A DNA stretch of 64,000 nt from Thermoproteota archaeon (GTDB lineage: Archaea > Korarchaeota > Korarchaeia > Korarchaeales > Korarchaeaceae). The stretch is taken from the NCBI GenBank assembly GCA_027491735.1, contig JAOZGP010000004.1:19523-83522 (forward strand). The letters are read 5' to 3'. This document shows, one piece after another, positions 43,338-63,100 of the stretch (its first letter is position 1; every line of letters starts with the position of its first letter). The position numbers and the translations under genes were made by a program. Below the pieces are notes generated by a model that searched no databases, was not told the origin of the DNA, and saw only the letters and a program-made list of their open reading frames with translations.

Positions 43338-44146
43338 CTCCTCAGAAAATAGCTAAAAATCTCAGAAAAAGCTTCGTTCATGGCGATAACACCAGGGGAG
43401 TTTTCGGGGTATATATCGACTCCTCTCCCCTCCATCTCGCTCAAGAAGAAGCTATCGTCGTAGGGGATGAAGAACGCCCCAACATCCCTCTTGCCGCACT
43501 CATCGAGCACCTTCCTTCTGATCATCCCAAGCTTATCGGGAGGAACCTTGTTCACAAGAAGATCTATCCTCTCTATGCCCAGGTTTTTCCCCATCTCTAT
43601 CAGCCTAAACGAGATGTCGAGGGACTTCACTGTTGGTTCCGAGACACAGATCATGTGATCGAAGTTCTCAGCTAGACCCCTTCCAAAGACCTCTGCTCCG
43701 GCCTCCGAGTCCACCACAACGGCTTCCCTCTCATCCATCATGACGTGTTTGAGGAAGGCTCTCGCCAAAGCTATTGCTGGACAGAGACATCCCTCTTTAG
43801 CCGCGTCTATGCTGCCAACAACGACCAGTCTTAGGTTGTCCCTCACCCTAAGGCCGAACTTCTCTATTATGTCATCCACCTGAGGATTGAGTCTGAAGAA
43901 GATTCCCCACGCCTCTCCAGGCTTTGCTCCAGTTCGTTTAGCGATGAACTCATTGTTCTTGGTAAGAGGAATTATCTTGAGGGCTTTATCTCTCGGCACA
44001 CCAAGGGCTTGGGCCAGATTAGGGACTGAATCTGTGTCAAGAGCTAAAACCTTGAGACCTCTTAAGCTCAAGAAAAAAGAGAGGAGAGCAGATGTGGTAG
44101 TCTTCCCTGTCCCTCCCTTTCCAGCCACGAGCACCTTTAACGGCAC
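43334..44146 (-). CDS. cooC: CODH nickel-insertion ATPase
   Basis: GKGGTGKTT, GCLCP and DSEAGAEVFGRG motifs; adjacent to cooS. Confidence 0.93.
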   Translation of the reverse strand: MPLKVLVAGKGGTGKTTTSALLSFFLSLRGLKVLALDTDSVPNLAQALGVPRDKALKIIPLTKNNEFIAKRTGAKPGEAWGIFFRLNPQVDDIIEKFGLRVRDNLRLVVVGSIDAAKEGCLCPAIALARAFLKHVMMDEREAVVVDSEAGAEVFGRGLAENFDHMICVSEPTVKSLDISFRLIEMGKNLGIERIDLLVNKVPPDKLGMIRRKVLDECGKRDVGAFFIPYDDSFFLSEMEGRGVDIYPENSPGVIAMNEAFSEIFSYFLRR

Positions 44147-44152
44147 CTATAC

Positions 44153-46081
44153 TCACTCCGGCCATCCGAGCTTCTTCCTCTTCTCCTTTATCACTTGGAT
44201 CATCGTCTGAGCCGCCTTTATCGGATCGGGTTCGACGTAGAACTTTCCTCCTACCAGGTCCTCAGCCTTATCGGTCAGGATCTCGACTACCCCCTTGCTG
44301 CCCAAGACAGGAGGCACCGTTCCTAGGTGTGTAAACACGCCAGAGGAGACGAAGTAGGTTCCTATGGAGACAGCCTTCTCGCTCATCCACTCCGGAGCAG
44401 AGCCCACAGCAGGAAGGTCTGATATATCCACGCCCAGGTGGTCCGCCAGTGCCGCCAGAGCTATCAACATTCTGGAGCAGTCAACGCAGCTTCCCATATG
44501 AAGGGCAGGCGGTATTCCCAGGGATTTACATATCTCCTTCAGTCCGGGACCCGCTAGTTCAGCTGCCTCTGGTTTGAAGAGCCCGTGCTTCGACATGGCG
44601 ATGGCCCAGCATCCGGTTCCGACGACTAAGATGTCGTTCTTTATCAGCTCCTTCGTCAGGGTCACATGGCTGTAATCGTGCCTGACTTTGGGGTTCACGC
44701 AGCCCACTATCCCAGCCACTCCCTTTATCTTTCCTGACTTGAGAGCCTCAGCCAATGGATCCAAGGTTCCTCCAAGGGCCTCCAATATCGCCTCCACGCT
44801 GAAACCAGCGACAAGCTCCATTTTCTCCTTGGGTATGAAAACCCTCTCCTTGACCCTGTTGGGGAAGTTCTCCACAGCAACCCTAACTATCTTCTTAGCT
44901 GTCTCCAACGCGTTCTCTTTGTCGAACTCTATGTGTATAGCTCCTGGCATGTGAGCCTTCGGCTCAGTGGTTATCACCTTGGTGTGGTAGCAGGACGCCA
45001 CGTTAGCTATCGCTGGCATTATGCACTGGTAGTCCACTATGACCGCCTCCACAGCACCTGTTATTATGGCGAGCTCCTGCTGTAACATGTTCCCGGCTAT
45101 AGGTATTCCATACCTCATCAGGACCTCGTTGCCGGTACAGCACATCCCAACAACGTTTATCCCTCCAGAAGCTCCGGCCTTCTTCGCCAGCTCGAGAAGT
45201 TCCGGATCCCTTGCAGCTTCGACCACCTTGGAGGAGAGTATGGGGTTGTGGCCGTGGACAACTATGTTTACAGCATCCTCTCTGAGAACTCCCAGGTTCG
45301 CAATGCTCTTGACGGGTTTTGGTGTGCCGAGAAGTATATCGCTCAGCAGGGTGGCCATGAGAGATCCTCCCCACCCATCTCCTAGGGAGGCCCTTATTCC
45401 CTGAGCTATCAGGCTCAACGGATCCGCGTCGACACCCATATGAGTTCTGTGCATTATCTCGACAACCTCCCTGTCTATAGCTCTGGGCATGACTCCTACC
45501 TTCTCCCAGATCTTTCTTCTCTTCTCCGGAGCGTACCCCTCAACCAGTTTGAGGGGTTCCTCGCCGGGCTTCCCGAACTCCATCAGAAGGACCTCAGCAA
45601 CCTCCTTAGCTACATCGTTCAGCTCTTTTCCTTCAACGTCAACGCCCAGCCTCTTGGCTAGATCCATCAACTTGGCCTCATCGGTTATCTTGTAATCCTT
45701 AGCCCTTCCCTCAGGTATTGCCGCCAGAACTTCAGCTATATCCCTTGCATGATCGCTGTGAGCCGCAGCTCCAGCAGCTATCATCCTGATAAGGTTCCTG
45801 GCAACTATAGTGTCAGCGGTAGCTCCACAGACGCCCTTTTGCGGACCATATCCGAAGGGATCTATCCTGCATGGACCCATGTTGCAGTTCCTGCAGCACA
45901 CCCCTAGCTGGCCGAAACCGCATTGAGGTTGTTGCGCTAAGAACCTATGCCATGCGGTCTCCACTCCGTCCTTCTCTGCCTTCTCGAGAAGCTGCTCAAC
46001 TGTTGAATCCATGGACACGCTCCTATAGAACTCCTTCCGGGAGGCTTTCATAAGCCTCTCATAAATTCTCTCCTCAGGCAT
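44153..46081 (-). CDS. cooS: anaerobic Ni-Fe carbon monoxide dehydrogenase catalytic subunit
   Basis: QPQCGFG..CCRNCNMGPC, AAHSDH, HGHNP, GMCCTGNE, DYQC, GCVN, GSCVD and EWMSEKA motifs. Confidence 0.97.
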   Translation of the reverse strand: MPEERIYERLMKASRKEFYRSVSMDSTVEQLLEKAEKDGVETAWHRFLAQQPQCGFGQLGVCCRNCNMGPCRIDPFGYGPQKGVCGATADTIVARNLIRMIAAGAAAHSDHARDIAEVLAAIPEGRAKDYKITDEAKLMDLAKRLGVDVEGKELNDVAKEVAEVLLMEFGKPGEEPLKLVEGYAPEKRRKIWEKVGVMPRAIDREVVEIMHRTHMGVDADPLSLIAQGIRASLGDGWGGSLMATLLSDILLGTPKPVKSIANLGVLREDAVNIVVHGHNPILSSKVVEAARDPELLELAKKAGASGGINVVGMCCTGNEVLMRYGIPIAGNMLQQELAIITGAVEAVIVDYQCIMPAIANVASCYHTKVITTEPKAHMPGAIHIEFDKENALETAKKIVRVAVENFPNRVKERVFIPKEKMELVAGFSVEAILEALGGTLDPLAEALKSGKIKGVAGIVGCVNPKVRHDYSHVTLTKELIKNDILVVGTGCWAIAMSKHGLFKPEAAELAGPGLKEICKSLGIPPALHMGSCVDCSRMLIALAALADHLGVDISDLPAVGSAPEWMSEKAVSIGTYFVSSGVFTHLGTVPPVLGSKGVVEILTDKAEDLVGGKFYVEPDPIKAAQTMIQVIKEKRKKLGWPE

Positions 46082-46696
46082 CTACACCCACCACCCCACA
46101 GGTTTGTACATCTCCTTAACTTTAGAAATCGGGGATTCTGGAGCCTCCTTTTCAATCCTCGCATAGACCACTCCAGCCTCCTGTACTCCCAGTATCATCT
46201 CCAAGGCTTTCTTTCTCTTCTCTTCATAGAGAAGGTCCTCCGCTCTACCAAACCTAAGGGCGCCCGTTGGACATGCCTCCACGCATGCCGGAGGAAGCCC
46301 CCTTCTCATCCTCTCAATGCAGTGATCGCACTTGATTACTTTAAGCGTGGAGTCATAGGAGGGATGGCCGAAGGGACACGCCAGGAGACATGTCCTGCAT
46401 CCTATGCACTTCTCCCTGTCTGCGACAACGAAGCCTTCCTCGGTCCTATGCATGGCTCCTGTAGGACAAGCCTGCTCACATGGAGCGGGATCGCAATGCA
46501 TGCACCTCATGGGAACGAGGAGTCTGTCAGCCACAACAACTCTGGTTCTTGGGCGAGGAAGAGGTTCTTCAAAGATTGCTCCAAACAGGTCACGGGAGTC
46601 GGAGTGTTCAACAGCGCAGGCTATTTCACAGCTTCTACATCCGACGCATTTAGAGGGGTCCACGTATATCAGGTACTCGGGCTGAGTTAAAGTCAC
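46082..46696 (-). CDS. cooF: CooF-type 4x[4Fe-4S] electron transfer protein
   Basis: CVGCRSCEIAC, CMHCDPAPC, CIGCRTCLLACP and KCDHC..PACVEACP motifs. Confidence 0.9.
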   Translation of the reverse strand: MTLTQPEYLIYVDPSKCVGCRSCEIACAVEHSDSRDLFGAIFEEPLPRPRTRVVVADRLLVPMRCMHCDPAPCEQACPTGAMHRTEEGFVVADREKCIGCRTCLLACPFGHPSYDSTLKVIKCDHCIERMRRGLPPACVEACPTGALRFGRAEDLLYEEKRKKALEMILGVQEAGVVYARIEKEAPESPISKVKEMYKPVGWWV

Positions 46697-46734
46697 AGCT
46701 CCCAGATCTCTTCACCCCAAAAAATTCTCACCGT

Positions 46735-47913
46735 TTACGTATAATTATTTCGTTTTTCAACGAAAGAAGGAATTGAAGTCCCGTTTTTCTTCTGGGAAAT
46801 TTTTAAATTTTTACTTAAAATCGATGATTTAGCAATTTTATATCTCTTTATAAGCTCCAAACACTCAGGAGTTGGGGTGCATCCTCCCCTGTCTGAACCA
46901 CCTTTCCTGGACATGAATAGGTTAATCCCCAAAATCTTTTCAATAGATCTTACTCTCTTGTATATCGAGGCTGGTGATGTGTTAAGAGCTCTAGCAAGTC
47001 TGCTAAAGCTTCCTAGATCAGCTAATGCCGATAAAATTTCCAGATCATCCTCGTATATGCGTCTGCCGTCCTTGGTCACGAGGACCAAGGAGGCTGAGAA
47101 GGAGTACTTCGTTGATCGACTTATCTTGCTGCAGTTCAGCCGCACGATGCCTGCTATCTCGAGGGGTGAGTAGAGCATGTTGAGGGTTCCCTCCACAGGG
47201 CATTTCCCTACATATCCCGCCGAGTCCAGGAACACCATGCCGCAGTTCAACTTACAGTAGGGGCCGTCCAGGACATATATTGGAAAATCTCTTCTGAAAG
47301 TGACCCGAACCATGTAGACGTCCATGAACTTTCTGAATGGCTCAGAGACCTCAAACCCCTGTCTCTCCATGATGGCCACAGCGCTAGTGGAGCAGACCGT
47401 TGGAGGACAGAATATGGGCGGGGAGATCCACATCTGAACCCCCTTCTCCCTGATTAGATCTATACAGGTGAGAAGTTCCCTCTCATTTGTGTTTTGAGTG
47501 ATAAACAGGGCTACTTTTACGTTTGCTCCTCTGGAGAGAAGGTATCTCATCATCTTCCTTGCCCCGGAGATGTCCGAGTGTGTGTAAGAAAAGAGAAAAA
47601 TCTCATCCGGTATGAGCAGGCTTCTCCATCCTTCCTCCTCGGAGCCGGTTGAGGATGGAGTGAATACCCTGAGAGGGAGTCTTCTCTCCTTAACAGACAT
47701 CATAAGATCCGTAACACCTGGATGGAGGAGCGGGTCCGGACATATGAAGCAAACCTCCGGTCTGTACCCGGAGCCTATCATGGCGTCCAACACGAGCTCG
47801 AGCTTATCTTTCTTGAGGTATGTGCGCTCTCCAGACTTGGTTTCTCTCCACGGGCACTGGGAGCAGGACGCATCGCACCCCCTCACAGGTCGAACTATGA
47901 GTACGGGCTTCAT
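46735..47913 (-). CDS. corR: CorR-like regulator: radical-SAM-like FeS domain plus C-terminal LysR/ModE-type HTH
   Basis: CDASCSQC motif; C-terminal GSFSRLARALNTS..YKRVRSIEKILG..KGG..RGG; sits directly upstream of cooF. Confidence 0.7.
   Translation of the reverse strand: MKPVLIVRPVRGCDASCSQCPWRETKSGERTYLKKDKLELVLDAMIGSGYRPEVCFICPDPLLHPGVTDLMMSVKERRLPLRVFTPSSTGSEEEGWRSLLIPDEIFLFSYTHSDISGARKMMRYLLSRGANVKVALFITQNTNERELLTCIDLIREKGVQMWISPPIFCPPTVCSTSAVAIMERQGFEVSEPFRKFMDVYMVRVTFRRDFPIYVLDGPYCKLNCGMVFLDSAGYVGKCPVEGTLNMLYSPLEIAGIVRLNCSKISRSTKYSFSASLVLVTKDGRRIYEDDLEILSALADLGSFSRLARALNTSPASIYKRVRSIEKILGINLFMSRKGGSDRGGCTPTPECLELIKRYKIAKSSILSKNLKISQKKNGTSIPSFVEKRNNYT
46748..46765. promoter_or_regulatory. 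inverted repeat at the BRE/TATA of the cooF promoter
   Basis: tttcgtt-tttc-aacgaaa immediately upstream of TAATTATA on the minus strand. Confidence 0.5.
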
Positions 47914-48464
47914 GGAATCGCCTCCATCACCTCGGCCCTGAACTCACATAGGCCATCGCCAGCTGCCTGACAGCTCACCTCCTCCATGGGTCCTATTCTC
48001 ACCCTGAGTATATCCTCGACCAGTGCTGCCAAGATGCCGGCCACGAACCTGCAGACCGGCTCCTTGGACTTCCTTCTCCTGGCCTCAAAGGAGTTGGAGA
48101 CGGAGATCCTAACGAAGTTGTCCTCAATTTCTATCTTCTCTATCCTGCCGAACCCCAAGGTCTCAAATATGGATGCAGCTATCCCGAAGAGCTCGTCCTT
48201 CTCGAATCTCTCTCTCATGGGAACTATTCCCTTCTCGTTGTGGGCCTTCATGAGCCTGTAGGCTGAGTAGTATAGGACAGGGCCTATGGCCTTACTGCCA
48301 GCCACAACCGAGATTCCAGCCATGAAGTCGGCCCACCACTTGGTGGACATGATGAACACGTCCGGCAGAATTGCCCTGCCGAAAAGGGGTATATCAACCT
48401 CGACCCTTATACTTCCCTGATCGTTCTGGATCTTCCTGATGTTCTTCATCATCGGTAAAATCAA
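47910..48464 (-). CDS. corQ: V4R-domain protein, CorQ-like
   Basis: LGFG, NSFEA, PVCRFVAGIL and EVSCQAAGDGLCEF motifs; ATGA-coupled to the corR-like gene. Confidence 0.75.
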   Translation of the reverse strand: MILPMMKNIRKIQNDQGSIRVEVDIPLFGRAILPDVFIMSTKWWADFMAGISVVAGSKAIGPVLYYSAYRLMKAHNEKGIVPMRERFEKDELFGIAASIFETLGFGRIEKIEIEDNFVRISVSNSFEARRRKSKEPVCRFVAGILAALVEDILRVRIGPMEEVSCQAAGDGLCEFRAEVMEAIP

Positions 48465-49580: not shown

Positions 49581-51302
49581 TCATGTTGAGGCTCCGCTGG
49601 AGGCTTTCTTGAACTCCGAATACCTCCTCAACCCGTCCACAGCAACTATTATGCCAAGTATGAACAGGACTAGACCGACAACGCCGAACACTCCATTGAG
49701 AGCGAGGGCTACTCCCTTGTAAGCAGGAGCGGCGAGAGGACCTTTTGCCAAGGGTTTTCCTAGGAAGATTGCCCTGAAGAACTTAGCTGATTCGAATATC
49801 AGAGCTGCCTCACATGTTATTATCATGAAGATTGCTGGCCAGAATGTGTATCCCGTCGGCTTCTTCTGCTTGGCCAAGTAGACAGTCACGAGCGTCAAGG
49901 CTAATCCGGCCAAGAGCTGATTGGATCCTCCAAAGAGGAGCCACAGATTTATCCAGGCGCCTGTGTAAGCCAATATATCTCCTATCACAAGCCCTATTAT
50001 GGCTCCTACGTACTTATTGCTTAGAAGAGGTCTTCCTCCTACCATATCGGCCCATACAAGCCAGAAGAACCTCACCGCTAGGAAACCTATGGTGAGGGCG
50101 TAGAGCTCGAGCCACATAGCAAAGAAGGCCTTGATCCAAGGGGCTGCAGCCGCTCCTCCGGTATAAGGAGCTACAAGCCTCACGGCCCCCTCCACAAGGC
50201 AGTTCCACTTAACTCCTCCAAGTGTTTTGATGTCTGCAGGAGAGAGAACCATGTAGGCTGCCAGAGAGGCAAGAGCGAGGAGGCCTTCCGTCAGCATGGA
50301 TCCACCACCGACTGGAAGAGCGTCTGTCTCCACATCAAGCTGCGGAGCTGATCCCGAGGTGCTGACCAAGCTGTGCCATCCGGAGATTGCTCCACATGCT
50401 ATCGAGACGGTTAGAATGGGCCATATCGGTCCAGGAGTCCAGAAGTCATTTTTAATGCCAAGCCACCCTCCCCATCCTATCTGCTGTATTGGAACATTCG
50501 TGGCTGGGGACACGAGGGCCCCGACTATGAGCAGCAATATTCCGAATATGGCAGGGTAGGATGCCACGTAGACGATCGGTTGCGTGACGTACATCAGGGA
50601 GATCGTGGCCCCTATGAACATCAGCACCGACGTGAAGACTATCCATACCATGAGGTTCGAGTTGGATATCGGGAATAGCTTTCCAAGAACTATACCAGCT
50701 ATCACTATTATGAGTCCGATTACTGTTGAGGTTACCACGCCAGTCCTGGCCTTGTAGAGGAGGGCACCGCTCACTATTCCGCCTATGTAGAGGAATATCA
50801 TTGCCAGAACGGACTCGGGGTATATTTTGAAGAAGAGGCTACATAACACAGCAAAGACGGCTATTATAAGTATTAGGTAGAAGAACAGGAAGCCTAGAAG
50901 GGATTTCCTTGCTCTAGGACTTATCAGCTCATAAGTCAGTGGCCCCATGGACTTCCCTTCATTCCTCACGGAGAGGAACAGGGAGGAGTAATCATGGATC
51001 CACCCTATGAAGAAGTTTCCGACCAAGATCCATATGAGGGCTGGAATCCATCCGTAAAACAGGGCTATGAATGGGCCGAGGATGGGACCAAGGCCTGCTA
51101 TCCCCTTGAACTGGAATCCATAGAGGACGTACTTGCTCACAGGGAAGAAGGTTATCCCGTCCATGTACATGTGAGCCGGAGTTGCCCTCTTTGGATCGGG
51201 TTCCCAGACGTTCCTATCATACCATTTGGCGTAGAGGTAGTATGCTATGAGGTAGACCACTATCCCGAGCGCCACAAACCAGATGGGATACATCCTCGAC
51301 AT
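49581..51302 (-). CDS. cstA: carbon starvation protein A family transporter
   Basis: TPAH..DG..P, IAGLGPILGP, GWIPALIW, HDY, IACGAISGWHSL and LFGGSNQLLA motifs. Confidence 0.95.
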   Translation of the reverse strand: MSRMYPIWFVALGIVVYLIAYYLYAKWYDRNVWEPDPKRATPAHMYMDGITFFPVSKYVLYGFQFKGIAGLGPILGPFIALFYGWIPALIWILVGNFFIGWIHDYSSLFLSVRNEGKSMGPLTYELISPRARKSLLGFLFFYLILIIAVFAVLCSLFFKIYPESVLAMIFLYIGGIVSGALLYKARTGVVTSTVIGLIIVIAGIVLGKLFPISNSNLMVWIVFTSVLMFIGATISLMYVTQPIVYVASYPAIFGILLLIVGALVSPATNVPIQQIGWGGWLGIKNDFWTPGPIWPILTVSIACGAISGWHSLVSTSGSAPQLDVETDALPVGGGSMLTEGLLALASLAAYMVLSPADIKTLGGVKWNCLVEGAVRLVAPYTGGAAAAPWIKAFFAMWLELYALTIGFLAVRFFWLVWADMVGGRPLLSNKYVGAIIGLVIGDILAYTGAWINLWLLFGGSNQLLAGLALTLVTVYLAKQKKPTGYTFWPAIFMIITCEAALIFESAKFFRAIFLGKPLAKGPLAAPAYKGVALALNGVFGVVGLVLFILGIIVAVDGLRRYSEFKKASSGAST

Positions 51303-51378
51303 CCTCCTCTTTTCGAGTCGTTGGGTAACGCGACATGAACAGTTATAAACTTTTTTAAAGAGTTGACAGGAAATTGGC

Positions 51379-51411
51379 GATAAGACGGATAAAAGTCGAT
51401 AATTTCAATAA
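51379..51411. promoter_or_regulatory. phased GATAA direct repeats in the divergent cstA promoter
   Basis: GATAA at 51379, 51388 and 51398, and AATAA at 51407 (9/10/9-bp period). Confidence 0.5.
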
Positions 51412-51413
51412 AG

Positions 51414-52019
51414 GTGCTTATGATGGAAGCGGGTTTCGTCGTGGTTCTAGCCATCACCACCCTGATGGTGTTGTGGTTCCTGGCCGGGAGGAGGATGAAC
51501 TTCAAAAGGCAGAGTCATCTCTGGAGGGAGGTTGCTCCGAAAATAAAGAGATATTCGAGGAAGGTGAACTTCAGGGGATTGGGATCCGGAGGTTTTCAGG
51601 TGAGCTTTCGAGGAGGAGGTCCCCTTTCAAGGGTGGAGCTGTTTTTCGTCCTCTTGGATAGGGAGAATCTTCCCCACCTCCTGTTTCAAAAGGCTGTGGG
51701 GAGAGGAGATGAGGTCTATCTAAGGGCCTCCTTCACAAGAAGCCCTGACTTCAGGCTGAGGATATCCGAGAGAGAGGAGAGCATGCCAAAAGTGAACTGG
51801 ATAGATCTTGGAGAGGAGCTCAAGGTGTTCTCTGAGGATCCCTCTAGGGCCGCCAAGATCCTCCTCAATGACAGGTTCAGAGATCTATTCAGTAAGATCA
51901 AGATAAGGGGTTTGTCGATAGCTCCAGAGGAGCCACATCTCATCATGAGATGTGATGCTGATCCGGAGAGCCTGGAGAACATCCTTAGAATGGCGGAGTT
52001 CCTGGCATCACATGTCTAA
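51414..52019 (+). CDS. single-TM membrane-anchored protein, possibly CCDC47/DUF1682-like
   Basis: N-terminal TM followed by GRRMN..W and VELFFVLLDRENL..D.V pattern. Confidence 0.6.
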   Translation: MLMMEAGFVVVLAITTLMVLWFLAGRRMNFKRQSHLWREVAPKIKRYSRKVNFRGLGSGGFQVSFRGGGPLSRVELFFVLLDRENLPHLLFQKAVGRGDEVYLRASFTRSPDFRLRISEREESMPKVNWIDLGEELKVFSEDPSRAAKILLNDRFRDLFSKIKIRGLSIAPEEPHLIMRCDADPESLENILRMAEFLASHV

Positions 52020-52585
52020 TGACATGAGAGCTCCTGAAGGAGATCCTTCAGGAACAGCACTTCATCTTTGTTCCTGCCTAATATTTTTATCTCAAGTTTC
52101 CTGCCTGTGACGTCACAGAAGAAACATAGAATGACTTCCCAGAGAAGGCCCCTCTTGAAGAGACCCTCCCTAACTCTCCTCAAGACGTAACCGCAGTCAT
52201 GCCCATTAACCCTCATCACTCCGTGATCCTCCGATTTCCTTGTCATCTTCTCCACCCACCTCCAAGGATCAAAACCTCTCCTAATCACGGGCTCTGATGC
52301 GCTGACCTTTAGCAGAACCTCTCCTCCATCATCTGAGATCACTCCAACGGTTATATGACCATTAGTGGCCCAGGTTATTCCTCCTGACTCCTTGGACGTC
52401 TCTACCTCAACCATTCTAAGAGGAAAAACTCTCCAACCCTCCGGAACGCTTATCGACACAAACCTAACAGTTCCTAGGATTATGTTCTTGGCGTCTAGGT
52501 CAACGTGTGCTCTCACGGGCATGCAGAAGATGGCTGAAGCTAAAAACATTCCACGAGGATTATGGCTTTGATTTTTTGTACCCAT
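52016..52585 (-). CDS. hypothetical protein ending in CH (PsbP/Mog1-like pattern)
   Basis: ISVPEGW, VNGH, FFCDVTGR and C-terminal LSCH. Confidence 0.65.
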   Translation of the reverse strand: MGTKNQSHNPRGMFLASAIFCMPVRAHVDLDAKNIILGTVRFVSISVPEGWRVFPLRMVEVETSKESGGITWATNGHITVGVISDDGGEVLLKVSASEPVIRRGFDPWRWVEKMTRKSEDHGVMRVNGHDCGYVLRRVREGLFKRGLLWEVILCFFCDVTGRKLEIKILGRNKDEVLFLKDLLQELSCH

Positions 52586-52627
52586 ATTATATTATATAAT
52601 ATATCTAAGTTTGATCATGACATGTGA

Positions 52628-53272
52628 TCAAAGACCTCTGCTGAAGAAATCCCTGACATAGTTCTCCAGATCCCTCGTGCTGTGTCCTGGGCATATCCTC
52701 CCAGCAAACTTCTTGATGATGTACACTAGGTCCTCCACGAGTTCCTCCTTTTCCCATTGAGACTTCTTACCCAAGACCGTCTCTACCTTAACACCGTATC
52801 CCTTGATGAGCTTGTTCAAGTAATTAAAGCAGAAGCGGGAGATCTCCTCGGTATCAAACAAGACCACGACATCAACGCCTCCATTGACGATCATGTCCAG
52901 AAGCTTCATGAGACCTTTTCTCTCCTCTCCCTCGAATGAGGACATTTCCTTGATCACCTTGACCACTCTGTAGTTCTTCCTATGACAGTATCTCCTCAGG
53001 ATCTCTACTCTTCTCTCAAGCTCATCCCTCAATCCAAGAAATCTGGACCTCACGTATATGACCGCTCTCCTCCCTTCCTCCCTCGCCTCCAGAATCCTCT
53101 TAACCTCCTCATTAGAGATTCTGTAGTGTCCTCCTCTGGTCCTCATGGCATTCACATAGCCAGATCTTATCCAGCATCTGATTGTCGATGGATGAAGATT
53201 TAACATCTCAGCGAGCTCGCTCACCTTTAGATATTTCTTATCGATTTTATCGCTTTTGCTCATAAATCTCAC
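52628..53272 (-). CDS. IS607 TnpA-like protein (MerR-type HTH plus serine recombinase fold) with altered catalytic motif
   Basis: KVSELAEML..TIRCW..RTRGGHYR HTH; AVIYVRSRF in place of YARVSS; RKGLMKLL, RFCFNYL and EELVEDL. Confidence 0.85.
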   Translation of the reverse strand: MRFMSKSDKIDKKYLKVSELAEMLNLHPSTIRCWIRSGYVNAMRTRGGHYRISNEEVKRILEAREEGRRAVIYVRSRFLGLRDELERRVEILRRYCHRKNYRVVKVIKEMSSFEGEERKGLMKLLDMIVNGGVDVVVLFDTEEISRFCFNYLNKLIKGYGVKVETVLGKKSQWEKEELVEDLVYIIKKFAGRICPGHSTRDLENYVRDFFSRGL

Positions 53273-53329
53273 ATCTCTAGAGAAGAATCCTTATTAATTT
53301 ATATATTGTGATGTATCCGAGGTGATTCT

Positions 53330-53638
53330 GTGATATTCAGGAGGAAGAAGAAGGAAGAGAATAAGGCCGGGAAAAAAGAAGGAGCGACTAGTGAGGCTAA
53401 GGAGGCAGTTAAGGGTCTTATCTATGGAATGTCAGCCCACGCGGTGACAAGACAGATGCTGAAGACCAGGATGTACCTTGAGCACCTCTTCATGCTCATA
53501 ACCCTGGGCGACATGCTTGGGATACCGATACTCCCCCCCTACTACTCGCTAAAGCTCCTTCCGTACGCTGTTCCAAACATAAAGACCTGGAAGAGGAGCC
53601 TTTTCAAGGAGAGGGACATAACTGACATGTTCTACTGA
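53330..53638 (+). CDS. small ArsA/CstA-associated protein (cory-CC-star-like), paralog 1
   Basis: FMLITLGDMLGIPILPPYYSLKLLPY..W motif. Confidence 0.75.
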   Translation: MIFRRKKKEENKAGKKEGATSEAKEAVKGLIYGMSAHAVTRQMLKTRMYLEHLFMLITLGDMLGIPILPPYYSLKLLPYAVPNIKTWKRSLFKERDITDMFY

Positions 53639-53647
53639 GGTGCCGAT

Positions 53648-54649
53648 ATGAAGTCCCTTAAGGAGTTCCTGGACGAGAGGCCTGACATGAAGGTGATAAT
53701 CAACGCTGGGAAGGGAGGGCTTGGGAAGACCACATCGAGTGCAGCAATGTCCTACTGGTTTGCCAAACATGGGAAGAGACCTCTCTGCTTCAGCACAGAT
53801 CCGCAAGCATCGCTAAGTGATATATTTGAGAGTGATCTGTTCGGAAAGGGAATTCAAGAGATAGAGAAGAACTTATTTGTCGTCGAGATAGACGCAGATA
53901 GGAGAATTCAAGAGTTCCAGGAGGAGATCAGGAATAAGATAAAGGAAATGTATGGACTTGACGAAATACCTGAAGAGATAGACGAATACATAACCACCTC
54001 TGCCTATGAGCCAGCGATGCATGAATCAGCGACCTACGACGCTATGGCTGAGCTTTTGGCTGAGGGAAAGTACAATCCGTACATCTTCGACATGCCACCC
54101 TTCGGACATGGTGTGAGGATGATAAGCATGGCCAAGATTCTGGACGCCTGGATAGATAAGATGGAAGAGACCAGGAGAAAAGCCGCTCAATATGCTGAGG
54201 CTGCGGCCTCACTGAGAGGAGCTGCAGCGAAGACGGAAGAGGAGGTCCTGAAGGAGCTCAGGTCCATAAGGAGGAGGTTGGACTTCTTCAGTGAGATCCT
54301 ATCAAATCCTGAATACTCTGCCTTCTTCATGGTGATAATACCGGAGAAGATGGCGATATTGGACACCGAGAGGGCTTTAGGAATGTTTAAAAGGCTAGGA
54401 ATAGAGATGGCTGGCGTGATAGTCAATCAGGTGTATCCAAGGGAGCTCCTGAAGAGGCCTGATCTAAGTGACTTCCTGAGGAAGAGGATAGAGATGCAGC
54501 AGAAGTACCTCAAGGAGATAAAGGAGAAATTTGGTGAGTATGTGAGGGCTATAGTTCCGATGTTCGATAGGGAGCCGAAGGGGATGGAGATGCTGGCTAA
54601 GGTAGCTCATCACCTGTTCGAGGAGCCAGGTTTGGAGGTGTTAGAATGA
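53648..54649 (+). CDS. ArsA/Get3(TRC40)-family ATPase 1
   Basis: GKGGLGKTT, STDPQASL, FDMPPFGH, PE and VNQV motifs. Confidence 0.92.
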   Translation: MKSLKEFLDERPDMKVIINAGKGGLGKTTSSAAMSYWFAKHGKRPLCFSTDPQASLSDIFESDLFGKGIQEIEKNLFVVEIDADRRIQEFQEEIRNKIKEMYGLDEIPEEIDEYITTSAYEPAMHESATYDAMAELLAEGKYNPYIFDMPPFGHGVRMISMAKILDAWIDKMEETRRKAAQYAEAAASLRGAAAKTEEEVLKELRSIRRRLDFFSEILSNPEYSAFFMVIIPEKMAILDTERALGMFKRLGIEMAGVIVNQVYPRELLKRPDLSDFLRKRIEMQQKYLKEIKEKFGEYVRAIVPMFDREPKGMEMLAKVAHHLFEEPGLEVLE

Positions 54650-55695
54650 GCGAGGAGAGCATGATTCTCGTGGAGAAGCCCGTTGGATTTAGGGATTATG
54701 TGACGACCCACGAGTCCTTGAAGTTCTTCTTCACCGGCGGAAAAGGAGGGGTCGGAAAGACCGTGGCCGCTGCAGGAATAGCAGCCTACTTTGCCAAGGA
54801 GGGAAAGAAGGTTCTGTTGGCCTCCCTTAACCCAGTGCACTCCCTCTCCAGCTTGTTTAGTCAGGATCTCTCTGGAGGAGAGATAAAACTGGTGGAGGGG
54901 ATAGAAAATCTGGACGCAATTGAGGTCGACATAAGCGACAAGGTGGCGAGTTACAAGAGACAGCTAGCTGATAGGCTCTCCTGGTTCCTGAAGTGGGCAG
55001 ACATACCACTGAAAGCATCTGAATTTATAGATATAGCTGCTACAAACCCCGCTTTTGAGGAAAGCGCTATGTTCGATGCCACTGTGGACATATTACTCCA
55101 GCAAGGAGAGAACTATGACAAAATAGTTTTTGACTGCGCTGCTGTGGCAAATGCGGTTAGACTTCTTGGGCTCAACAAGATCTACGGGCTCTGGCTTCAG
55201 AGGATGATAAAAAGCAGAGAAGAGGCTCTTTCGCTAAGGGTAAAGCTTTCCTTCAGGAAAGATAAGGCCATGGAGGAGATAAAGAAGGATCCTTTGATGA
55301 AGGACCTGCTTGGGCTCAAGGAGAGGACCGATAGGGCAAGCGAGGTGCTCGGAGATCCTAGCAGGACGGCCTTCTTCTTCGTGACCCTGCCACTAGCTCT
55401 TCCAATATCAGTCGTTGAGAGGTTCATAAACATGGTCAAGGGCTTCAACATAGCGATAGGAGGGGTTGTTGTCAATGGGGTCATAAGAAGGGAGCTCGCT
55501 GAGAGGGGTACTGAATATCTGAGGAACAAGTACGAGGAGCAGAAGAGATACCTTGAGATGATAGAGGATAAGATGGGCCCACTTGTCAGAGCCGTTATTC
55601 CTCTGTATGAGACCGAGATAGTTGGAACTGAGATGATCCTCAGAATAGCGGATGATCTGTCGACATGGACCCCCGAGAAAGGACTGTTCCTTTGA
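54646..55695 (+). CDS. ArsA/Get3-family ATPase 2 with degenerate switch motifs
   Basis: GKGGVGKT is retained; SLNPVHSL replaces STDPAHSL and FDCAAVAN replaces FDTAPTGH. Confidence 0.9.
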   Translation: MSEESMILVEKPVGFRDYVTTHESLKFFFTGGKGGVGKTVAAAGIAAYFAKEGKKVLLASLNPVHSLSSLFSQDLSGGEIKLVEGIENLDAIEVDISDKVASYKRQLADRLSWFLKWADIPLKASEFIDIAATNPAFEESAMFDATVDILLQQGENYDKIVFDCAAVANAVRLLGLNKIYGLWLQRMIKSREEALSLRVKLSFRKDKAMEEIKKDPLMKDLLGLKERTDRASEVLGDPSRTAFFFVTLPLALPISVVERFINMVKGFNIAIGGVVVNGVIRRELAERGTEYLRNKYEEQKRYLEMIEDKMGPLVRAVIPLYETEIVGTEMILRIADDLSTWTPEKGLFL

Positions 55696-55705
55696 GGAGA
55701 TTGCT

Positions 55706-55957
55706 TTGGGGTTAAAGGAGCATCTAAAGGATTTCTTTTTTGGTTTTGCTGTCTTACCTCATCTAAGAACTGTTGTAAAGATGCGCTTTGAGGAGGACAT
55801 GTTCATGATGACCTTGACCATAGGGGACATGATCGGTCTGCCCATAATGCCCCCCGTTTACAAGCTCTCCCTGCTCCCCTACTGGTTGCCTCTTATAAGG
55901 AGATGGAAGAAAGAGCTGCTTGGTGAGAAGGGCGCTCTTGAGAAGATAGAGGAATAG
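55706..55957 (+). CDS. small ArsA/CstA-associated protein, paralog 2
   Basis: TTG start after GAGGAG; MMTLTIGDMIGLPIMPPVYKLSLLPY..W aligns with paralog 1. Confidence 0.75.
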   Translation: MGLKEHLKDFFFGFAVLPHLRTVVKMRFEEDMFMMTLTIGDMIGLPIMPPVYKLSLLPYWLPLIRRWKKELLGEKGALEKIEE

Positions 55958-56276: not shown

Positions 56277-57185
56277 ATGATCGGGTCGAGTTTAAAGCAG
56301 AAATCATTTCACATTGGAGGAAAGATTTATAGAGTTTGCAGCTGGTGGTGTAGCTCTGAGTTGATCGGTGAGATAGCTTCCGTGCTTACAGGACTGATCT
56401 GGGGAGCGACTCCAGTGCTTTATGAAGATTCAACTGAGAGGATCGGTCCTGTGCTGGCGAACCTGATGAAAAGCTTTGGTGCCCTTACTGTAAACCTCAT
56501 CATGATCATCCCCTTCGGAGTGAAGATTCCCTGTGGATTGCCCCTGGCTCTCCTGATACTGGAGTCCTTCATAGCTGGAGGAGTGGGTGATTTCCTGTTC
56601 TTCCTTTCGATAAAGGAGCTCAAAGCCTTCAGAGCCGTGCCGATAGTGTATGTGTATCTCATGCTGGCCAACATCTGGAACTTTCTTCTCAACGGAAGCC
56701 TTCCTCCTATCACCGCTGCGATTGGCATGCTGCTGGCCGTGACTGGGATATGGATCATGCTCTGGAGAGATGGATCCCTCAGCCTCAAAGGAATTATCTA
56801 TGCCCTGTCCTCAATGGTGCTCTTCTCCATAGCCCCTGTGATAGCTCAGATAGCTCTCAGGAGCATACAAACTGTTCAGGCTGCTTTTATCAACTCACTC
56901 TTCTTATCCATTATGTTCTCGCTGTTCGTTCCGTTCTCCAAGCGCAGATTCTCTGGAAGAGGTGTATTGAGCGGCTTTGTGGGAGGGGCACTGGGCGTCG
57001 GCCTGGGAGTATTTCTTTACTTTTCAGCTATACAGAACATTGGAATAATGTTCCCCGTGCTCTGCACTGCCCTGAGCCCCCTAACGGTCCAGGTTTTCTC
57101 ATGGATTTCAGGGAGAGATCCAGATTTAAGAAGCACATGTGGCGCTATTGTGATCGTCTTCGGCTTGATGATCTCCCTCCTATGA
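56277..57185 (+). CDS. DMT/EamA-family transporter
   Basis: About 10 TM in two EamA halves (LIWG..GP, LYFSAIQNIG..SPL); true start is probably TTG near 56361. Confidence 0.85.
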   Translation: MIGSSLKQKSFHIGGKIYRVCSWWCSSELIGEIASVLTGLIWGATPVLYEDSTERIGPVLANLMKSFGALTVNLIMIIPFGVKIPCGLPLALLILESFIAGGVGDFLFFLSIKELKAFRAVPIVYVYLMLANIWNFLLNGSLPPITAAIGMLLAVTGIWIMLWRDGSLSLKGIIYALSSMVLFSIAPVIAQIALRSIQTVQAAFINSLFLSIMFSLFVPFSKRRFSGRGVLSGFVGGALGVGLGVFLYFSAIQNIGIMFPVLCTALSPLTVQVFSWISGRDPDLRSTCGAIVIVFGLMISLL

Positions 57186-57799: not shown

Positions 57800-58174
57800 T
57801 CAACAGGTCACGTGAAAGATGGCTGCAACTTTCTTTCCCTCATCCTTTAACCTGTTGTAGATCCCTATGGCCTCCGGCGTCCTGGCCTTGATCACTGAAA
57901 TGCTGAGCTCTGAGGCCACCTCTTCGACCTCCACCGTTGGTAGGGCACCGTACTGTCCGGTGCCGATCACCAAAACCTCAGGCTTCCTCTCCCCGAAGTA
58001 CTCTTTTATCTCCCTCCCGATCAAAGGAGTATGCCCGTATCTCCTCTTGAGATCCATAGATAGCTCTTTTCTCCTCCTCTCGATGTTGTCGAAGAGAACC
58101 ACGTCGTGATCATACCTCACACCATCTATGACTATGTACCCGAAGCCCGTCTCCTCAGGTCTCATGCTGACCAC
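57800..58174 (-). CDS. Mth938-like domain protein
   Basis: [34 protein letters not shown] and FHVTC motifs. Confidence 0.9.
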
Positions 58175-60096
58175 GTCTGACCGTTAGAGCCATAGACCTT
58201 AGCTCCTGCGACCTCCTCCATCAGGGGTATGTAGGAGACGCCTGGGTTGATCCCTATGGATGTGTCGTAGATGTTCAACTCTATCCTCTTTCTCCTGATG
58301 AGCTCTCCCAGCCTTGTTATCTCCTCCTTCACGCTCCTGCCAAAGAGTGGGACATTGGCCCTTCCGTCGGTTATGAGAAAGGCTCTGACCTTCAGCGATT
58401 CGTTCTTCATCCTCTCCTTATCAGCCATAATAAGGAGATTATGAAGTCCCGAGCTCAGCGGAGTTCTTCCTCCAGTGGGCACCTTCTCTATCTCCTCAAG
58501 AACCTTCACATAGTTCCTAGTTGGTGGAACGACCACCTCAGCACTGTTCCCCCTTATGACCACCAAGGCCATCTTTGATCTCTTCACGTAACCCTTCTCT
58601 ATGAGCCTCCCTGCTATTCCCTTAGCTATGCTTATCCTCCTCCTTATCGCCATGCTGCCACTCGAATCGAGGAGAAGAATCCACAGAGTGGGAGGTCTTG
58701 CCCTTCTAACTCTGATTCTCACGTCGTCTGGGCCGATTCTCAGAGGAGGTCTCTTTCCGTTGAGCACCGACCACACAGCGGAGTTGTACAGGTCGACATC
58801 CCTTATCTCTCCCTGAGGAGGAATGTAGGCCACTGGGATTCCCCTAGGAAAATTCATCACAGTCACGCTAGCGTCTCTGGAGGAGTGGTAGCTTGGAGGT
58901 CTGTCCTCCTCCCGATTCATGTTACAGAGCTTGAGCTCATCAATTTCCTCTGGATCAAACTTCAGCATCAGATTTCCTGTGTTCTCAGGAGGCTCATCCC
59001 TTCTGTCGTCCCCTTTCCACTCTCTACCTTGATTGTTGTTCCCCCTCCGACCGTGATCATTGGAACTGTGAGGATGCTGTCTCAACCTTGGAGGGGATTC
59101 CAAAGGCCTCTGGAGGGGCTTCTCCCTGAGTCTATGTGGGAGAGAGAGTTCCATAGCCCTCTCAAGATCCTCCAAGCTGACCATCCTTCTGCCGTCCAGA
59201 GCTGCTATAGCTTTGGCTGTCTTGACAGTGACTATCTCGGCCCTGTTGGTTCTTACACCTAGCTCTATTATCGTGTCGGCTAACAGCTTCAGAAGATCCT
59301 CGCTCACCTCGACTTTGGAAAGCATCTCCCTCGCCTCAGCTATCTTCTCTGTGAGCATCTCCTCCTCTCTTCTATACCTCTCATAAAAGGTTAGAGGATC
59401 CCTGTGAAATTCCTCCACCCTCTTAACTATCTCGATTCTATCATCAGGATTCATAGGGACTGATATCTCGACGCATAGCCCGAACCTGTCCGATATCTGT
59501 GGTCTAAGCTCCCCCTCCTCGGGATTCATGCTTCCCACAAGTATAAAGCGGGAGGGATGCCTAAAGGATATTCCCTCTCTTTCTATTATGTTCCATCCCA
59601 TCGCGGCGGCGTCTAGAAGAGAGTCAGCTATGTAATCGTCCAGTAGATTGACCTCGTCTATATAAAGCACGCCCCTGTTGGCCTCGGCTAATATGCCGGG
59701 CTGAAGGGCCTTGATCCCCTCCTTCATGAACCTCTCCACATCTATGGTCCCAACTAGCCTGTCTATCGTGGTGCTCAGAGGCATGTCAACGAGCCTCATT
59801 CTCCTCCTGGTTGTGGGAAGCTCCTCTCCTCTGCTGTATCTTTCGTAACACTTGTCACACATCTCAACCGGATTTCTCGGGTTGCAGTTGAAGGGACATC
59901 CATCAACGATCTCTATCTCCGGGAGCACGTTTGCCAGAGCCCTCACCAACGTGGATTTACCAGTTCCCTTGTCCCCCTTGAGGAGAACACCTCCTATCAT
60001 CGGATCGATGGCTACACAGAGGAGAGCCAGCTTGGCCTTATCCTGCCCGACGACGGCTGAGAACGGGAATATCAGGTGCTTACCTCTGGAACCCAC
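58162..60096 (-). CDS. ChlI/ChlD-type chelatase AAA+ ATPase with C-terminal VWA domain
   Basis: [37 protein letters not shown] and [13 protein letters not shown] motifs. Confidence 0.93.
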
Positions 60097-60108
60097 GAGA
60101 CCACCCTC

Positions 60109-63100
60109 CTATGCCGACACCACTTGCTCTTTTCCTTCCTTCTTGAGAGACTTCCACATCATTTCGACCTCTTCAATCCGCTCTTTCCAGTGATCATCAT
60201 CTTCGGATGTGTAGATCTCTATCATTCCTCCTTGGACGTCTCCTTGACCGAGTTCTTCCTCTAAGATGCCCTCCAACTCAGAGTACATCTCCCTCAACTT
60301 TTCTATGAGTTCATCGCTCGTCTTCCACAGGCCGCGCTCATAGGCCTCTATCAGCCTCCTCACAATCTCCTCCAAGGCGTAGGGATTATGCTTCTCGAAC
60401 CATCTCCTCATCTCATCATTAAGTGCGTACTTCTCGGCTATCTCATCGAACACCCAGTCCTCGACAAGTTTTGTCGTTGCCTCCCACCCATAGAGGTGGA
60501 GGATTTTCTTCGAGAACTCGCTGGCCCCTCTGTAGCCATGCTTTCTCATCTCATCTATCCATCTGTCGTTAAGGAGCTTCGTCCTGACAACCCTTTCTAT
60601 CTCGTCTCTCACATTCACCACCTTGGTGTCCGTTACGTCCCTAGTGTCCACCTGAACTATGTCGACGCTCTTTCCGGTAAGCGCGTCCACGGCCGCCTTG
60701 AATCCACCGTGATATGCGAAGTAACAACAACAGTTCGTTAAGTCGTGCTCATCGCTCATGTGATTCCTGTTTATCACGTCCACCTCCCTGAGACCTAGAG
60801 TTAGAGAGTCGTGTGCCTTCACCCCGAAAGCCTCCCTGCTGTAGGCATAACCACTCCAGTGAACCCAGACCTTTCCGAGATCATCGCCGCCCCTCCATCC
60901 GGAGGACTCCACAGCTAGATTGACCCCAGAACCATAGGAACCCGGAGGAGAGCTGAAAACTCTGAATCTAGCAAACTTTCTCGCCTCATCTAAGCTTCTT
61001 CCAAGCTCAACAAGTTCTCTTATGTGTTCTATGTAGTGCTTCCTGATGTAGTTCATCTCAGGAGGCTCATCTCTTGTAACGACCTTCTCAACGGCTTCAT
61101 CTATCAGATAGATGTAGTTGGGAAGGGTGTCCCTAACTATCCCACTCATCCTCACCAGAACGTCTATTCTTGGCCTTTTAAGCTCCTCGATTGGTATGAT
61201 CTCCACCCCAACCACGAAATCGTCTTTCCAGACGGGCCTAACACCCAAAAGGTATAGTATCTGAGCCACCTGCTCGCCATCGGCTTTGTAGCCATCTATG
61301 CTCCAGAGAACCTGACCTACGCTCTCAGGATACTTTCCGTGCTTCTTCACATAATTCTCTAGGAGCTTCTCCGCCGTCTCAACTCCCACCTGCCAGGCTG
61401 CCTGAGTTGGTATAGTTCTGGGATCGACTGCGTAGAAGTTCCTGCCGGTCGGGAGGATGTCGAACTTGCCTCTAGTTATGGCTCCCGACTGACCGGGCTC
61501 CACGTAAGTTCCTGAGATGCCTGATAACATACCTGATGTCTCTTTTTTGCACTCCGTTATCTTTTTAGCAACTTCAGCAGCCTTATTAAGGATCTTTATG
61601 ATCTTTTCCAGGTCTTTAAGCTTAGTTCCAAGCCTGTCTTCCACCCTCTCGAGAGCATCCTGGGACACGACAAAGCCCCTGCTGATGACCTCCTCTAAAG
61701 CCATGACTGCCGCCTCGTGAGCTGCACGAAGCATCTCTCTGTTCGACACATCCCCGATCATCCCCGTTGGATTCCTCCTAAGCTCATTGTAGTCCAAACC
61801 AACGGCCTCCAAGATGGCCCTCCTGATTGATGGAGATGAGTAGGAGTCGTACTCCATGACTGTGGCCACGTACTCAGCAAGCTTGTGGGGATCCTCGGGT
61901 GGATGACCGAGGACATGGAGGCCCATGTTTATCTGGGACCCCCTTATAAGGTCCGTGAATCTGTGGATCTCCTCTACCGTCCTCTCCTCGTTCTTGGGAT
62001 CTGTGATCCTGATCCTGTTCCTCTCAGCACACTTCAAGATCTGCTTGTATATCTTCCTCCTCCTAATTTCATCTCCCAGGCTCTTTGCCTTGAAGTACTG
62101 ATTTAGAAGGGAATTTACGTCATCGAGCACATTGGCCATGGCCATTGGTGGATATATGTGATCTATGAGGGCCGCATACCCTCTCCTCTTGGCTATCACC
62201 CCCTCCATGGGGTTCGACACGATGTAGACGTATAGATGGGGAACATCGTCTATTGAGGCCTGAGGCACACATGAGGGAGAGAGCCCAACCCCCTTGCCGG
62301 GTCTGAACTCCAGATAACCATGAGTGCCGAAGTGGATTACCACATCGGCCTTGAACTTCCTCGTGATCCACCTGTAAACGGCCCACCACTGATGTGGAGG
62401 GACTATTGTGGGATCGTGAAGAATCCTACACACCTTTCCATCACACCTAGCCCCAGCACAACCGAACTTGGGCTGTGGTGTTATGAGCACGTTCCCGAAT
62501 ATCACTCCAGGCACCACGAACCTTCCGTTGTGAACCATCCCCGCCAGAACCTTGTCCACCCTTCCGGTCAACACCTCCTCCGGACTCCCCCAGCCCTCAA
62601 CAATCTTCCTCCTCAGGTCCGGTGGAAGCTCTTGGAACCAACTCATGTATTCTTCAAAACCGACGAAGTCGACTGCACCTCCCCTGCTCACTATATCCTC
62701 GACGCTAGTCCATCTGAACTCGCTCAGTGCCTTTCTCTCTAAGATCAGCTTCACCAATTCCTCCCCAGTCTCTGGGAGATCATCCCCAAGGAAGTAGCCC
62801 TCATCTCTCAACCTATGAAGCAACCTTACGACACTTTCAGGAACGTCAAGGCCCATCCCAACAGCTACGTTGGCCTCAAGACCCTTACATGGTGGATTTA
62901 TCAGTACCACCGCTATCTTGACCTCTCCCCTCGGCTTTTTCCTCAGCTCAACCCATCTCCTTATCCTTCCAGCTATGTATCTCGCCTGTCCCTCGTGGAT
63001 TTGGGATGTCTGATAGCCATCCTCGTTCCTCGTCCCTGAGAAGAAAATCGGCTCCACGGCCCCGATTATCTCAGGGATTATGACTCCGTAGACCTGAGTC

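Follow-up and report, generated by a model that had tools for sequence, protein, structure and literature searches.

A 64,000-nucleotide stretch of archaeal DNA (the window), which is part of contig C36 of an assembly (G000) that is 88% complete, carries a locus in which a gene for a CstA-family transporter is found together with genes for two Get3/ArsA ATPases, ArsA1 and ArsA2 (A1 and A2). The other genes of the locus encode two small proteins, CstX1 and CstX2 (X1 and X2), a protein with a single transmembrane (TM) helix, CstY, a protein ending in Cys-His (the CH protein) and a protein derived from the TnpA of IS607 elements (Table 1). The names CstX and CstY were assigned by match to the descriptions, not the sequence tables, of Castillo & Saier 2010 (PMC2963123). 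All eight open reading frames (ORFs) named in a preliminary description of this DNA were located within the span 49581..55957, and the motif that it had reported for both small proteins was found in X1 and X2. Both strands are used (minus for cstA, the CH gene and the TnpA-like gene, plus for cstY and X1-A1-A2-X2), and there are therefore at least three transcription units. In a sequence search of the assembly cstA was found as a single copy. Both ATPases matched Pfam ArsA_ATPase and TIGR00345, and Pfam and NCBIfam scans gave no family match for the window copies of CstY and the CH protein.

Table 1. Genes of the cstA locus, with positions in the window (aa, amino acids; E, E value)
Gene or product	Position	Strand	Evidence and remarks
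cstA, CstA-family transporter, 573 aa	49581..51302	-	Pfam PF02554 E 3e-96; ~12 strongly hydrophobic segments by hydropathy
cstY, N-terminal TM helix and cytosolic-type alpha/beta domain, 199 aa	51420..52019	+	divergent from cstA; predicted CCDC47/TtfA fold
CH-ended protein, ~168 aa (longer ORF from 52585)	52016..52522	-	predicted Mog1p/PsbP fold; invariant His-Cys-Cys-His
IS607 TnpA-derived protein, MerR-like helix-turn-helix (HTH) and serine-recombinase domain	52628..53263	-	NF033518 128 bits, cut-off 110; divergent from cstX1
cstX1, ~100 aa, cory-CC-star-like	53330..53638	+	NF041419 E 8e-8, below cut-off
ArsA1, single-domain Get3/ArsA ATPase	53648..54649	+	TIGR00345 231 bits, cut-off 135; 3zq6 E 5e-59
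ArsA2, ArsA1 paralogue, likely pseudo-ATPase	54646..55695	+	TIGR00345 200 bits, cut-off 135; Switch I Asn (N62)
cstX2, 83 aa, TTG start after GAGGAG	55706..55957	+	NF041419 E 1.6e-5, below cut-off; ORF from ATG 55652 overlaps arsA2

Seven of these genes, encoding CstA, CstY, the CH protein, CstX1, ArsA1, ArsA2 and CstX2, are inherited as one block, and the window locus is a real, conserved member of this module in its most elaborate form. A gene-neighbourhood survey showed the module genes recurring together across genome and metagenome loci, as the preliminary description had supposed for a single co-inherited system. In 14 related genome loci with an A2 orthologue, some of them cut by contig ends, the seven genes recur with shuffled order and strand (L032-L034 show no CH gene). 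Among 80 metagenome loci, the best 80 of 581 fetched through A2 motifs, A1 was found in 72, X1 and CstY in 62 each, CstA in 61, X2 in 56, the CH gene in 51 and a TnpA-like gene in none. The 24 loci flanked on each side by 4.5 kb or more contained A1 in 24 cases, CstA and X1 in 23 each, CstY in 22, X2 in 20 and the CH gene in 17; after dereplication at 90% the counts were 18, 17, 17, 16, 15 and 12 in the same order (n=18). As the genes remain clustered through changes of order and strand, their co-occurrence is far beyond chance in the sets examined; since related genomes are not independent, the counts are to be read as patterns, not as statistics. A single A2 protein used as query of the genome contigs retrieved only 4 loci, 2 of them with true orthologues.

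For the phylum, 32 genomes with a completeness of 80% or more were searched in full; CstA was present in 18, A2 and full-length or contig-split CstY in the same 18, and the CH protein in 17 of them (the exception is G019). CstY matches in two further genomes (G016 and G023) are only truncated or frameshifted remnants. In a second family (that of G037, with a single-ArsA form in L036) 56 of 61 genomes have both CstY and CstA, and the other five, each a single contig and 99% complete, have neither. The loci of the two genomes with remnants are decaying modules, with a broken arsA2 and a frameshifted cstY in L039 (G023) and a truncated cstY in L137 (G016), and neither genome has a cstA match. Relatives were named from Bathyarchaeia, Baldrarchaeia, Thermofilum and Anaerolineae (via A2) and from Syntrophaceae (via the CH protein), and the gene set therefore spans both prokaryotic domains. 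A1, A2 and X1 are near-universal in the loci and the accessory genes are optional. Pairwise distances in 40 loci, whose kin are not independent, showed that A2 tracks CstA best (Spearman 0.90). Mean identities in the same 40 loci (31 for the CH protein) were 0.68 for X1, 0.60 for the ATPases, 0.49 for CstA, 0.36 for X2, 0.31 for the CH protein and 0.25 for CstY. An optional extra gene, found close to A2 at 35 loci of 11 lineages, encodes a 120-150 aa thioredoxin-like protein with CxxC or CxxxC, examples being L105:4659-5105(-) and L033:6303-6653(-); it gives weak Thioredoxin_3 matches and none was found in G000.

The X1-A1-A2-X2 order that had been described as a symmetric operon is real in the window, and the symmetry is not conserved among loci. 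In a set of 99 loci, partly incomplete and not dereplicated, A1-A2 adjacency was counted 75 times and X1-A1 adjacency 74 times; A2 and X2 were neighbours in only 3 cases, which rules out the symmetric arrangement as a design feature. The X1-A1-A2 order is thus fixed across loci and the symmetric gene order is local. A strict design of two ATPases and two adaptors is likewise not needed, since some A1/A2 loci (L033, L104 and L107) have only X1 within the DNA fetched.

The two ATPases are 33% identical and form two well-supported clades with mirrored branching (a quick tree of 31 rows), and their duplication is therefore old; this supports the earlier view of ArsA1 and ArsA2 as a pair. The P-loop of A1 is intact, as are its Switch II Gly-His and its Switch I Asp; the Asp is kept in 35/35 dereplicated homologues, all of which except the query came from loci found through A2. 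In A2 the P-loop is intact and the Switch I Asp is replaced by Asn in 15/15 proteins of the genome set, which includes the window protein, and in 120/120 of a protein set that is less independent because it was ranked with a profile containing the Asn. All A2 proteins examined have Ala in place of the Switch II Gly, and the adjoining His is Asn in the 120 and is retained in the deeper-branching L032 and L033. A D57N-type change of this Asp in Get3 is reported to leave ATP bound and not hydrolysed (PMC12506534), and the Asp-to-Asn change also gives a non-hydrolysing ArsA variant (bioRxiv 2025.03.21.644500). Because of this Switch I change, ArsA2 is likely a catalytically dead pseudo-ATPase, and A1 and A2 likely form a heterodimer with one firing site. 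The helix 7-8 region of A2 is nearly invariant and basic. A1 aligns almost without gaps to 3zq6 through helices 7-9 (the TRC40 insert), as does A2. A CxxC zinc clasp was found in neither A1 nor A2; it is also reported to be absent in some Get3-like groups (PMC6593721). A third ArsA-family gene, G000:C36:90680-91771(-), lies outside the window; it is 26-29% identical to A1 and A2 and groups with further stand-alone ArsA-like genes on a long branch.

CstX1 is the most conserved member of the module and is nearly always encoded directly upstream of arsA1. CstX2 is its faster-evolving paralogue (40% identical over 72 aa, E 4e-20). Neither protein has a strong TM helix (KD19 of 1.56 for X1 and 1.33 for X2 vs 2.46 for CstY), and the hydrophobic stretch of CstX1 is weak and internal. 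This combination of conservation and weak internal hydrophobicity is more in keeping with a specific docking component than with a tail-anchored client, and CstX would fit the role of a peripheral docking adaptor. Asterix was considered as a possible homologue of CstX and gained no support from Pfam, as 0/25 CstX members matched any Asterix family at E<=10. The window CstA scored 147 bits against the CstA/BtsT equivalog NF011590 (cut-off 1188), and a profile search against the Protein Data Bank (PDB) found no solved CstA structure by sequence. CstA probably carries a small solute that supplies carbon or nitrogen and resembles pyruvate or a peptide.

A profile search found 545 representative CstY relatives at E<=0.001. 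The AlphaFold2 model of CstY, built on an alignment of 145 sequences, had a predicted local distance difference test score (pLDDT) of 96. Foldseek ranked CCDC47 first for this model (7tm3_4 E 1.5e-8, TMq 0.78; 9i78_4 E 2e-7), followed by TtfA. With VIA, CCDC47 7tut_4 residues 135-393 gave a Z of 16.6 and a root-mean-square deviation of 2.5 A over 197/199 residues, fungal CCDC47 a Z of 14.7 and the third-ranked TtfA a Z of 12.1 (143 residues aligned); the next unrelated entry reached 6.4. CstY is thus predicted to fold like CCDC47. The CCDC47 family PF07946 was matched by 24 of the 145 CstY relatives at E<=0.01 (best 3.3e-8), not by the window CstY itself, and by 8/14 members of a smaller set at E<=10. 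The CstY profile found nothing significant among PDB sequences, with CCDC47 only at E 0.25, and a longer-protein search with it did not reach eukaryotic CCDC47, which is weak evidence. CstY ends where CCDC47 residue 393 aligns and so has no latch helices, through which CCDC47 is placed between the ribosome and Sec61 (PMC12572126). Prokaryotes lack PAT components according to Sundaram et al. (PMC9630114), and no prokaryotic CCDC47 is mentioned in the accessible text of PMC11186639 and PMC12572126. No paper on CCDC47 together with TtfA was found in the literature searched, with most subscription journals outside its coverage. Its loss together with cstA means that CstY has no general role in biogenesis; it would be either a partner subunit, as TtfA is for the mycobacterial transporter MmpL3, which requires it (PMC6593404), or a one-client chaperone. 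Shortened CstY proteins of 150-170 aa, without a central or C-terminal part of the domain, are encoded in L028-L031, L033 and L034.

The AlphaFold2 model of the CH protein (pLDDT 91, 19 sequences) predicts a Mog1p/PsbP fold. Foldseek and VIA matched it to PsbP, Mog1, LpqN, DcrB and SciW, with a best Z of 11.4 and 18 chains at Z>=8, the best scores belonging to PsbP-like and uncharacterised proteins; a profile search against PDB sequences gave nothing significant. The Mog1p/PsbP family spans PsbP, the Ran-binding Mog1p and the TM-helix chaperones SciW and EagT6, and the fold therefore does not fix the function. In 46/46 homologues (from 69, dereplicated at 80%) His107, Cys135, Cys166 and His167 (numbering of a 167-aa reference) are invariant, and these Cys2His2 residues likely form a putative metal site.

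The TnpA-like gene, listed with the others in the preliminary description, is not a general member of the module: it is linked to the module in only three related genomes (G000, G003 and G011), where it lies divergent from cstX1. The three linked copies have Arg, Cys or Gln in place of the catalytic Ser, which is kept in 9/9 other aligned copies. No tnpB adjoins the linked gene; most of the nine other copies adjoin an ORF that is presumably TnpB-like by its sequence features. The linked copies differ by 0.31-0.33 at nonsynonymous sites (pN) vs 0.77-0.78 at synonymous sites (pS), the latter being saturated. The protein looks like a domesticated, family-local DNA-binding protein and, by its position only, is a candidate lineage-specific regulator of the module. 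Repeat and promoter scans gave nothing above shuffled sequences and no operator for it (the sigma-70 scan does not suit archaea), and no motif was established in the upstream regions of the three linked genomes. A frameshifted IS607 tnpA remnant lies near tRNA genes at G000:C8:10341-10968(-).

The reading that we favour, tentatively and as possible rather than probable, is that the seven conserved genes encode one ATP-coupled CstA importer driven by a half-active ArsA pair. Building on the observed co-inheritance, the degenerate Switch I of A2 and the conservation ranks, and on the predicted folds of CstY and the CH protein, its inferred steps would be as follows. A1 and A2 would form a heterodimer in which the P-loop Lys retained by A2 reaches across to the ATP of its partner, as the P-loop Lys of ArsA acts on the opposite ATP site (bioRxiv 2025.03.21.644500), and the A1 site would fire while the A2 site holds ATP. 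CstX1, with CstX2 where present, would act as a fixed adaptor, bridging the groove of the ATPases and the cytosolic side of CstA; through it the ArsA pair would dock on CstA and drive its transport cycle. CstY may be a single-pass partner subunit of CstA, in the manner of TtfA and MmpL3, the CH protein an optional metal-binding accessory and the dead TnpA a locally recruited regulator. Driving is favoured by gain and loss of the block with cstA, by the match of A2 and CstA distances, by the nearly invariant, basic helix 7-8 region of A2 and by the highly conserved, non-TM CstX1, as well as by the finding of no tail-anchored client, no latch helices and no Asterix match. Precedents are ArsA, which couples ATP hydrolysis to ArsB (bioRxiv 2025.03.21.644500), and TtfA, as the required partner of a transporter (PMC6593404). 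The same coupling was proposed for CstA in 2010 (PMC2963123).

Several points weigh against an ATP-coupled importer. No feature pointing to ATP coupling was found in the window CstA, and E. coli CstA transports pyruvate on the proton gradient (PMC7730263), so that the CstA fold does not need ATP. A second, divergent full-length CstY-like gene (L136:3576-4256(-), in G030) has no module gene in the 10 kb examined. Moreover, co-inheritance cannot separate driving from gating or assembly, and since relatives on the Get3, CCDC47 and SciW/EagT6 branches handle TM helices, the three accessory folds favour an assembly role.

The main rival, which we regard as rather unlikely, is a dedicated assembly line for CstA, likened to a one-client GET plus PAT pathway, in which the Get3-like pair, CstY, CstX and the CH protein would shield and place the helices of CstA and then leave. 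The CstY model matches both the TM helix and the globular domain of CCDC47, the ATPases carry the TRC40 insert, EagT6 and TM-domain-bound SciW belong to the fold family of the CH protein, and a one-client pathway would account for the co-loss with cstA just as well. Set against this, CstY has none of the latch helices that CCDC47 uses between ribosome and Sec61, the CstX members gave no Asterix match, the module has no tail-anchored client, and the Mog1p/PsbP relatives have many unrelated functions, with the best scores elsewhere in the family. CstA of E. coli K-12 is active and no such module is known there, which also counts against assembly. A specific prokaryotic form of it, in which a half-dead Get3 heterodimer, a latch-less CCDC47, CstX and a metal-binding chaperone of Eag/Mog1 fold would build or remodel one client, CstA, appears unlikely to us; if true, the components from which eukaryotic GET and PAT arose would have a surviving relative here, encodable in one 6 kb locus.

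Less probable again, and in our judgement quite unlikely, is a regulatory switch, in which CstA would stay a proton symporter and the half-active ATPases, with CstX, the metal-binding CH protein and, in other lineages, a thioredoxin-like protein, would gate it by energy, metal or redox state. One degenerate site would suit slow switching, the optional accessories (the CH protein and, in other lineages, the CxxC/CxxxC protein) bear Cys residues, and CstA-family carriers are proton-driven (PMC7730263). These accessories, unlike the near-universal A1, A2 and X1, are optional. Heterodimeric ABC transporters, which are true pumps, also have degenerate sites, and this counts against reading them as the mark of a switch.

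That ArsA1 and ArsA2 are the halves of a two-domain ArsA and confer ordinary arsenic resistance is very improbable, in line with the preliminary description, which had seen no arsB, acr3, arsC or arsR at the locus: no ars gene was found there, and each ATPase has one Cys (C47 in A1; C164 in A2, not conserved; Thr replaces the A2 Cys in 43/67 homologues), so that the three-Cys As(III) site of ArsA (bioRxiv 2025.03.21.644500) is absent. The Pfam ArsA_ATPase matches, the 'arsenic transporter' labels that databases give to relatives, an Acr3-like gene on contig C16 that scores below cut-off and, on C40 of the same genome, a weak ArsB-family match speak for it. Against it, A1 reached 91 of 650 and 127 of 800 bits at the cut-offs of TIGR04291 and NF041417 and A2 85 and 111, the genome, 88% complete, yielded no ArsD, and no ars gene was among the recurrent neighbours (eight neighbour types scanned against Pfam). 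A short-motif screen for arsenic proteins among the neighbours, a weak test, also found none.

The module is widespread in archaea and bacteria. If the ATP-coupled importer is the true reading, a secondary carrier would have been made ATP-coupled by a half-active Get3-like pair. Under any mechanism, CstY is a prokaryotic protein with a predicted CCDC47 fold, contrary to the statement on PAT components in PMC9630114. A small, thermostable protein with a single client thus opens to testing both where CCDC47 came from and what its globular domain does. The module also offers a concrete partner set for prokaryotic Get3-like ATPases, for which 'arsenic transporter' labels are misleading.

Two flanking genes were rejected as module members, as neither had a homologue among the matches listed from 19 related loci: P0009 (48821-49474) and an EamA gene (56277-57185). 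The former, on the minus strand directly downstream of cstA, encodes a 217 aa protein without a Pfam or NCBIfam match, with a 27% identical paralogue at C36:50092-50724 (about window 30570-31202); the latter, on the plus strand after the module, encodes an EamA-family transporter and is not conserved beside the module. A CO-oxidation-like cluster lies at window 43334-48464(-), with genes that by their motifs presumably encode a CooC-like ATPase, a CO dehydrogenase-like 642 aa protein and a ferredoxin; it also encodes a radical-SAM-like/ModE-type HTH fusion (46735-47913) and a V4R protein (47910-48464). The genes at 58162-63921(-) presumably encode, again by their motifs, a CobN-like chelatase subunit of 1270 aa and a ChlI/ChlD-like AAA+ vWA protein. 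Elsewhere in the assembly, ARAGORN called a 94 nt tRNA with anticodon tta ('Stop') at G000:C22:11363-11456, which is probably a misread intron-containing tRNA.

Comparison with known systems places the peripheral members of the locus at some distance from their relatives. The TnpA-like protein has the HTH and serine-recombinase domains of IS607 TnpA, above the NCBIfam cut-off, and differs in the lost Ser, the missing adjoining tnpB and its fixed place divergent from cstX1 in three genomes. The CH protein has only its fold in common with PsbP, Mog1, LpqN, DcrB and SciW/EagT6 (identity 7-14%); by contrast, it has an invariant His-Cys-Cys-His of its own, and the window copy matches no Pfam family. 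The window CstA does not fall within the equivalog NF011590 of the CstA/BtsT proton-pyruvate symporters. The TM helix and globular domain of CCDC47 (PAT complex; PDB 7tut/7tm3, 9i78; PF07946) superpose on the predicted CstY, with weak profile matches; unlike CCDC47, CstY has 199 aa, no N-terminal region and no C-terminal latch helices, the CstX members gave no Asterix match, and it is gained and lost with one transporter. TtfA (PDB 6t84) is of the same fold family and is also an N-terminally anchored accessory of one transporter, although that transporter is of another class, CstY is structurally nearer to CCDC47, and the abstract on TtfA describes no ATPase pair (PMC6593404).

The ATPases share with Get3/TRC40 and the archaeal Get3-like ATPases (PDB 3zq6, 3ug6) a single-domain SIMIBI architecture, the TRC40 insert and TIGR00345 scores above the cut-off. 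They differ in being two fixed paralogues with the catalytic Asp in A1 only and without CxxC, and there is no tail-anchored (C-terminally anchored) client or Get1/2-like gene among the module genes of the window. With the ArsA of the ArsAB pump they have in common an ATPase family proposed to energise a secondary carrier and a pseudo-dimer asymmetry (bioRxiv 2025.03.21.644500). By comparison with that system, as described in the same source, A1 and A2 are separate genes without a three-Cys metalloid site, the window module has no ArsB or ArsD, and A2 naturally carries the Asn of the laboratory non-hydrolysing ArsA variant.

The closest known systems are the ArsA clusters 14-18 among the 26 cstA-arsA clusters described in PMC2963123, especially cluster 15 with its paired ArsA. 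That paper names the ~90 aa CstX and the archaeal, single-TM, ~210 aa CstY, reports adjacent ArsA pairs (about 25-31% identical) and two CstX paralogues, each in two organisms, notes no ars genes in the clusters, and proposes CstX as the coupler of ATP hydrolysis to CstA. As in these clusters, the window cstA adjoins single-domain ArsA homologues of ~330 aa, CstX and CstY, with no ars genes. The gene set and the main idea of the preliminary description are therefore known as a prediction outlined from gene order; no experimental test of the module was found in the literature searched. In the same literature no relevant paper on CstX or CstY was found beyond PMC2963123, nor were the A2 pseudo-ATPase, the CCDC47 fold of CstY, the His-Cys-Cys-His Mog1p/PsbP protein or the dead TnpA. 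The first three of these had also escaped the preliminary description. The accessible text of PMC2963123 mentions no CstY fold, no CH protein, no thioredoxin-like or TnpA-derived gene and no experiment. It describes cluster 15 as working without CstY, whereas the window module includes CstY, and it suggests ArsA homodimers where we infer a heterodimer for the window pair. Finally, it remarks that the Asp of the SXD motif may be Asn without linking the Asn to one paralogue; in the module described here, the Asn is confined to A2.

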